DNA of 64,000 nt, taken from assembly GCF_003334405.1 (NCBI RefSeq), contig NZ_QOWM01000008.1, one strand, 5' to 3'. A program made the translations under genes and the position numbers. A model generated the notes under the pieces. It was not told the origin of the DNA. It did not search any database and was given only the letters and a program-made list of their open reading frames with translations. This DNA comes from Escherichia coli. Its GTDB lineage: Bacteria > Pseudomonadota > Gammaproteobacteria > Enterobacterales > Enterobacteriaceae. Shown here piece by piece: positions 26,214 to 27,110 of this stretch (position 1 is the stretch's first letter; the number at the start of each line of letters is the position of its first letter).

Positions 26214-27110
26214 TCACTTAAGAGGAGCGGCACTATGTTTCACAGGATAACGGGTTTTTGATATCTTAACCGACCTCGGCCTTGATGGTCGGGGGCGTTT
26301 TGTTATGAACACCACTTCCAGAGCACCCCGAAGATGCTCCAGTCGTTTCGGGATGGTCCCTGGTGACGCCGTGTTTCCCAGCTCTATCATTTCTGATGCG
26401 ATATTCTTCCACGCAGGCAGTAGCCAGTGGCGGTTACAACCCTTCTGGTTCAGCGTCAGCAGCAGGTCTTCGCTGTAAAAAAGTTTATCAAACAACGTAA
26501 TAGAGTTATCCGGGATGGTGGCGAGCATGGAGTGGGCCAGCACAGTTTCGCTCTGCCGGTAAGGTGCGGTCACGGCATTCAGCAGAATGTGACTTCCCAG
26601 GTTCATTAAGGCCACCAGACGCATAACCGGGTAGGCGTTCTGCCGCTTAGTGGATGTGTTGGCAGACCCATAATATTCACGCAGCTCGGGTTTATCAGGT
26701 GTCCTGAACTGTGCGCCATCAATGGCAAAAAGTTGCAGGCCGTGCCAGTCATCCTTCAGGTAACGTTCCGCGCCCCTGTCTGTGCGGTCTGGCGGAAGAG
26801 CCATTCCACTGGGGCGGCCCCCACGCGCTGACGCGCCTGGGTGACAGCGCTGCGGGCCAGCAGGTTCATCCCCGCTTCGCCATCCGCGCTCAGGTTCAGA
26901 CGGCGAACAACATCGGTAATTGGCTCATTGCACCACCATCCAGATAACCATGTCCCCCGGTAAACGACGGCGGCGAACGGTCGCATGAGCAGAAAGCGTC
27001 AGGCAGTGTTGTATCCACTCGGTGGGAAGGTGTTCTGCAAATAGTTGTGCAGAGGGCGGAGGCATAAGCGGATGGTCACTGAAATCGAGCAGATCATTGA
27101 GAAGTGGCAT
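26214..27110 (-). pseudogene. insZ: IS4-family transposase remnant, frameshifted into three ORFs
   Basis: Three consecutive minus-strand ORFs (26925..27110, 26756..26986, 26214..26804) in frames 2/1/2, about 299 codons in total; transposase-like sequence; no terminal inverted repeats seen. Confidence 0.7.

Follow-up and report, generated by a model that had tools for sequence, protein, structure and literature searches.

The locus described here lies in a 64-kb stretch of Escherichia coli DNA (64,000 nucleotides; the window), in which galU, hns and tdk are found on one side of a defective insertion sequence, ISZ, and adhE on the other. The broken transposase gene within it is encoded on the minus strand and matches the MG1655 pseudogene insZ (b4573, 1294426-1295322) at 897 of 897 bases, in the identical position between tdk and adhE. 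In MG1655, insZ sits within the annotated mobile element 'insertion sequence:ISZ' (1294426-1295405, corresponding to 26214-27193 of the window). PGAP labels the gene 'IS4 family transposase, frameshifted' in other genomes. The element has also been listed as ISZ'/insZ (PMC3032704), and ISZ in K-12 has been given as 'IS4-like', present in one copy and never transposing (PMC5009759). The feature is ordinary and was known before: a catalogued K-12 pseudogene and a dead IS4-group element. The initial annotation, in which the region was read as a fossil insertion carrying a decayed IS4-family transposase between tdk and adhE, is upheld by the identity to MG1655 insZ and by strong IS4-family homology.

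The source strain is a close relative of MG1655, but not MG1655 itself, differing by one SNP across 6.5 kb around the locus and by a few structural changes elsewhere. The SNP is located at position 26050 in the spacer between tdk and ISZ (T here, A in MG1655). Elsewhere in the window, an intact IS10-type element of 1,329 bp was identified at 639-1967 (PGAP: IS4-like element ISVsa5 family), encoding a 402-aa transposase. It has the ends CTGATGAATCCCC and CTGAGAGATCCCC and a 9-bp duplication, TACTACGTC, and is inserted among the repeats of the ldr/rdl toxin-antisense region, at a point that corresponds to the interval between rdlB and ldrC of MG1655; MG1655 lacks the element. The IS5 copy (IS5U / insH21) present in MG1655 between ychE and oppA is missing at ~31283-31286 of the window, with an alignment jump of 1,199 bp. 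The rttR/tpr/tyrV-tyrT region (18670-19050) contains one 178-bp tandem repeat fewer than in MG1655.

Boundaries and coding lesions of ISZ

The boundaries of ISZ were placed by alignment with strain SOI121, which has nothing between tdk and adhE. The flanks in this empty-site strain meet at one copy of CCCAGAAGGG, and two copies are present in the window. The ends of the element read CAATGCCGTTCACTTAAG and, reverse-complemented, CAATGCCGATCAGTTAAG, and comprise 18-bp terminal inverted repeats with 16 of 18 positions matching. A pattern search of the 64-kb window found the end motif twice, at the two ends of ISZ, compared with 0.02 occurrences expected by chance. An unbiased repeat search of the window recovered both the inverted pair and the perfect 10-bp direct repeat, at a spacing of 999. 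The initial annotation had reported that neither terminal inverted repeats nor a target duplication were visible, and had proposed a search for residual inverted repeats around the element; that search finds the inverted pair at the ISZ ends, and the perfect 10-bp duplication is likewise present, so the claim was mistaken on both counts. In MG1655, the annotated 'ISZ' feature begins only with the stop codon of insZ (26214), leaving out the outermost 9 bp of the terminal repeat (26205-26213). Both ends carry CAATG at positions 1-5 and TTA at positions 14-16, as in the IS4-subgroup end signature -AATR--------WTW----, and the 10-bp duplication falls within the range of 10-13 bp given for the subgroup (De Palmenaer et al. 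2008, PMC2266710). The positions of all features are collected in Table 1.

Table 1. Features of ISZ and its target site, in window coordinates.
Feature	Position	Strand	Details and evidence
tdk-side half of split terminator hairpin	26190..26204	.	Empty-site fold; stem interrupted by ISZ
Target-site duplication CCCAGAAGGG, tdk-side copy	26195..26204	.	Once in empty site, twice here
Whole defective element ISZ, 989 bp	26205..27193	-	Alignment to empty site of SOI121 and to intact 1,430-bp relative
Terminal inverted repeat CAATGCCGTTCACTTAAG, transposase C-terminal end	26205..26222	+	insZ stop codon inside; identical to the end of the intact relative
insZ pseudogene (b4573), 897 bp, three ORF pieces	26214..27110	-	Exact match to MG1655
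ORF piece C, 196 aa	26214..26804	-	First two catalytic aspartates (AIDG, LFDK) kept, then directly the C-terminal tail
423-bp in-frame deletion junction	26390..26403	-	Codons 242-383 of the intact gene gone
ORF piece B, shifted frame	26756..26986	-	Remainder of N-terminal domain
1-bp deletion, second frameshift	26776..26777	-	T of Trp codon 118; original frame restored
ORF piece A, 61 aa	26925..27110	-	Start of Nterm_IS4 domain
17-bp deletion, first frameshift	26931..26932	-	Codons 60-66 of the intact gene removed or disrupted
10-bp stem hairpin and U-rich tail directly upstream of insZ ATG	27116..27141	-	3' arm holds GGGAG ribosome-binding site; identical in intact relative
Terminal inverted repeat CAATGCCGATCAGTTAAG, transposase N-terminal end	27176..27193	-	Alignments, pattern search
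Target-site duplication CCCAGAAGGG, adhE-side copy	27194..27203	.	Empty-site alignment, repeat search
adhE-side half of split terminator hairpin	27194..27208	.	Empty-site alignment and fold

The IS4-family homology proposed for the three ORFs was confirmed with their spliced translation. This matched the Pfam models Nterm_IS4 (1.1e-24) and DDE_Tnp_1 (6e-8; model positions 2-116 of 200, representing the first half only), and the NCBIfam model NF033592 (IS4 family transposase) with a score of 131 bits, above the curated cutoff of 115. In a database search, 570 homologues were retrieved at E <= 1e-10, most of which are ~445 aa in length and contain both Pfam domains.

The lesions were mapped by base-level alignment of ISZ to its closest intact relative, a 1,430-bp element with a 445-aa transposase. 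About 299 codons of transposase, broken into three minus-strand ORFs by two frameshifts, had initially been described. The three ORFs are present as described and the two frameshifts correspond to the 17-bp and 1-bp deletions (Table 1), but the main lesion was missed, as 299 codons represent only about two-thirds of the 445-aa gene. The two small deletions together remove 18 bp, and the reading frame is therefore restored. The decisive lesion is the 423-bp deletion. It takes out 141 codons that include Y311-R314-E318-K325, the Y-(2)-R-(3)-E-(6)-K motif with the catalytic glutamate. In ISZ, D137 and D214 (AIDG, LFDK) are retained, and E318 and the YREK motif, which is present as YHSRWEIEVGFRNLK in the intact relative, are deleted. 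ISZ consists of three ORFs where the intact relative has a single uninterrupted ORF of 445 aa. After 441 bp of deletions it measures 989 bp, which is below the length of 1,400-1,650 bp for the IS4 subgroup, and the intact relative, at 1,430 bp, is within it. As it lacks the YREK motif, ISZ is filed as a defective descendant and not as a functional member of the subgroup.

In the intact relative, the segment corresponding to the 423-bp deletion lies between two near-identical direct repeats of 14 bp, TATCGCGGCAGAAA and TATCGCGACAGAAA, as seen in the alignment. This suggests that the deletion may have arisen by slippage or short-homology recombination between the two repeats.

The same three deletions were observed in all five assemblies that were compared (K-12-like, strains 126 and 774, O104:H4 and GF4-3; 98.8-100% identical). 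As the lesions are common to independent assemblies, they are ancestral and are not sequencing errors. The chance that the frameshifts are artefacts in an otherwise intact gene is negligible: the indels are identical in five independent complete assemblies, 1,884 genomes carry a locus of equal length, and repairing the frame would still leave the gene short of 141 codons, among them that of the catalytic glutamate. Collapse during assembly is likewise an unlikely cause of the 423-bp gap, as the 989-bp element recurs in thousands of complete genomes. Sequencing error was rejected on the strength of the lesions common to independent assemblies. One intact reading frame, named at the outset as the result that would count against a decayed transposase, was not seen in these five assemblies, all of which share the breaks. 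The ISZ copies in strain 774 and in O104:H4 2009EL-2071 are 993 bp in length and contain an extra 4-bp insertion, a further frameshift beyond the three deletions.

An intact lineage distinct from IS4

The closest intact relative of the insZ product is a 445-aa E. coli transposase (P0001), encoded by the 1,430-bp element between gnd and ugd and also carried by plasmids, p12579_2 among them. A near relative bears the label 'ISCro3 transposase' in one database record, and the equation with ISCro3 rests on that single label. Across 295 codons, ISZ and the intact relative differ by 19 amino acids with no in-frame stop (dS 0.195, dN 0.031). The dN/dS of 0.16 indicates that the two lineages diverged largely under purifying selection, at a time when both were functional. 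By this comparison, the ISZ copy appears to have been functional on arrival, and its decay since insertion consists mainly of the deletions.

Intact representatives of the ISZ lineage still exist, as full-length copies were found in 162 E. coli genomes and also on 102 plasmids, most of them conjugative, of Escherichia, Salmonella and Klebsiella. Another remnant of the lineage, which is more eroded, ~93% identical and with several deletions, was identified in strain CEC01302 (locus record 3033-3728), downstream of a UvrD-like helicase gene and near nanC/nanM. The same copy is present in O157:H7 genomes and is absent from K-12. In addition, isolated 87-bp fragments that are 92-93% identical to the transposase-proximal end only of an ISZ-lineage element occur, unannotated, on several plasmids and chromosomes.

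The relationship to IS4 proper, the insG element, required separate consideration. The terminal repeats of the two elements are nearly the same, with the CAATGCCGATCAGTTAAG end of ISZ differing from the corresponding IS4 end, TAATGCCGATCAGTTAAG, at the first base alone, and IS4 occupies exactly the tdk/adhE site elsewhere, intact in one strain and internally deleted in another. Both observations would be expected if ISZ were a decayed copy of IS4. However, the DNA match between ISZ and true IS4 is confined to the terminal 18 and 35 bp, with no detectable similarity in the interior. The intact relative is 39% identical in amino acid sequence to InsG, protein comparisons with IS4 range from 31 to 39%, and the identity of ISZ to the intact lineage, which is a different one, is 93.6%. 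Furthermore, the duplications differ (10 bp for ISZ, 12 bp for IS4), which points to separate insertion events. Descent of ISZ from IS4 proper is thus extremely improbable and was rejected, since the DNA matches at the ends only and the proteins are 39% identical. With 39% amino acid identity and no interior DNA match, ISZ falls outside IS4 sensu stricto (insG), and on sequence comparison it represents a separate lineage within the IS4 subgroup.

The target hairpin and occupancy of the tdk/adhE site

The empty tdk/adhE site folds as an 8-bp GC stem, ACGGCCCC-loop-GGGGCCGU, preceded by an A-run and followed by a T-run. This hairpin is predicted to be the bidirectional intrinsic terminator of the convergent tdk and adhE genes. 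ISZ is inserted in its loop and splits the stem.

Six independent targets of the ISZ lineage and IS4 were reconstructed. For the ISZ lineage these were tdk-adhE (10-bp duplication, CCCAGAAGGG), gnd-ugd (11 bp, CAGCTAGACTG) and plasmid p12579_2 (11 bp, CCCGCTTCGCG); for IS4 they were tdk-adhE (12 bp, CCCCAGAAGGGG), bamD-raiA (14 bp, CAGCTCAAGGGCTG) and the K-12 insG site (12 bp, ATCTTGGTTCTG). A GC hairpin with a flanking A-run and T-run, and with the duplication centred on the loop, was present at five of the six sites, the exception being the K-12 insG site. True IS4 is intact at the tdk/adhE site in strain 23CRST047. The duplications at tdk-adhE are of different lengths (10 and 12 bp), and ISZ and IS4 therefore arrived there independently. 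Mayaux et al. reportedly described, in 1984, IS4 in the pheS,T attenuator with the target AAA-N20-TTT, which agrees with hairpin targeting. Also in agreement, 'spectacular apparent insertion specificity' has been noted for some IS4-subgroup elements, as has a striking specificity in the target arms (PMC2266710). In STEC17-190, IS4 lies between raiA and bamD (locus record ~2026-3451) in another terminator hairpin, with the 14-bp duplication listed above. Fourteen places in STEC17-190 match the IS4 end, which suggests an expansion of IS4.

The hns-tdk-adhE region had been characterized at first as an AT-rich hotspot for acquired DNA. The GC content of the hns-tdk stretch is indeed 38-44%, but that of ISZ is 52-60% and that of adhE ~50-54%, and the insertion point is a GC-rich hairpin. 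AT-richness as the cause of the insertion is not supported, given a GC-rich hairpin as the target and an element of 52-60% GC. The hotspot is better described as sequence- and structure-specific hairpin targeting by IS4-subgroup elements, as judged from the reconstructed sites.

The state of the site was counted among 5,426 complete E. coli genomes. The locus was occupied by ISZ in 1,884 genomes (~35%) and the hairpin was empty in 2,164 (~40%). An IS4-type junction on the tdk side was present in up to 1,519 (up to 28%), a count slightly inflated by similar IS4 sites elsewhere, as a result of which the three counts together slightly exceed 5,426. The IS4-type occupants of the tdk/adhE site include both intact IS4 and IS4 with an internal deletion of ~280 bp. 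This three-state insertion polymorphism (empty, ISZ, IS4) is usable as an E. coli lineage marker, and the site clearly illustrates the independent choice of one terminator hairpin by two related elements.

Mobility, possible host effects and comparison with known elements

Taken together, ISZ is very probably an immobile remnant of a cut-and-paste IS4-subgroup element that was inserted in a terminator hairpin and disabled by three deletions, and none of the observations contradicts this reading. From its anatomy and the empty site, a functional copy of such an element would have inserted in the loop of the tdk/adhE hairpin, with the duplication of 10 bp of target. The 17-bp, 1-bp and 423-bp deletions then struck the copy. 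With the last of these, the third catalytic residue and the YREK motif were lost, so that no transposase would be made, and the dead copy has since been passed on as ordinary chromosome in about one-third of E. coli.

Loss of transposase activity would be expected from the missing catalytic residue, and this agrees with published data. In mutation-accumulation lines of K-12, none of 758 new insertions were of ISZ and eight were of IS4 (PMC5009759). The lack of ISZ insertions fits the loss of the catalytic glutamate and speaks against any detectable mobilisation of ISZ by IS4. The same data bear on whether ISZ might be a non-autonomous element that, like miniature elements, is still mobilisable in trans by a related full-length transposase. 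It has the same two termini as the intact relative, one of them a single base from an IS4 end, and the full-length relatives in 162 genomes and on 102, mostly conjugative, plasmids could be a source of the enzyme. Nevertheless, we consider such mobility unlikely. The transposases of the IS4 family (Tn5, IS10) act mainly in cis, the sampled 989-bp forms occupy one place per record, with every one that was opened lying between tdk and adhE, and ISZ did not move in the K-12 lines in which IS4 moved eight times.

The insertion could have affected the ends of the neighbouring transcripts. Beside the adhE stop codon, a 4-bp stem without a U-tract is left, and at 26205-26193 a stem weakened to 5 bp keeps the original U-tract. 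As read from adhE, a strong hairpin with a U-rich tail is next met inside ISZ, at 27141-27116. With the terminator split and this hairpin inside the element, transcription of adhE may continue for ~90 nt or more into ISZ. The hairpin itself, which lies directly upstream of the insZ start codon (Table 1), would also sequester the GGGAG ribosome-binding site of insZ and may stop transcription or translation that enters ISZ from its surroundings.

From this arrangement, it could be argued that the remnant is used by the host, either by providing adhE and tdk with a replacement terminator or 3' end, or through a 196-aa or N-terminal fragment that inhibits related transposases. The reduction of the 8-bp terminator stem to 4 bp next to adhE, the strong hairpin within ISZ and the persistence of the element in ~35% of genomes are in keeping with such a role. 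However, the site is empty in ~40% of genomes, which do well without an insertion, and is occupied by IS4 in many others, and the additional frameshift in the O104:H4 and strain 774 copies is unlike a conserved protein, making host use highly improbable. A broader proposal, also judged to be very unlikely, is that the splitting of the terminator by ISZ or IS4 would alter the 3' ends of adhE and tdk or their read-through, and that the three-state polymorphism would be maintained or sorted by selection and not by neutral hitch-hiking; in a variant of this proposal, the retained ends would be mobilisable by plasmid-borne relatives. The reading of ISZ as an immobile remnant is preferred to each of these.

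As a catalogued pseudogene in the best-annotated bacterial genome, ISZ matters little in itself. The value added here is descriptive and includes the exact ends, repeats and duplication, of which the reference annotation clips 9 bp, the identification of the 423-bp deletion as decisive, and the distinction of the ISZ lineage, still alive on plasmids, from IS4.

Compared with insZ/ISZ of MG1655, the element is without any difference, and tdk and adhE flank both. ISZ and the intact 1,430-bp relative have identical termini and share 93.6% amino acid identity over 295 alignable codons. A matching hairpin is present upstream of the start codon in both, and the lineage makes 10-11 bp duplications in hairpin targets. 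In contrast to ISZ, from which 441 bp are missing, the relative has the full DDE triad, the YREK motif and no frameshifts. With IS4 (insG), the type element of the subgroup, ISZ shares the domain layout, near-identical 18-bp ends and the same kind of target, but IS4 is 1,426 bp in length, its duplication at tdk/adhE is 12 bp compared with 10 bp for ISZ, and the amino acid identity is 39%.
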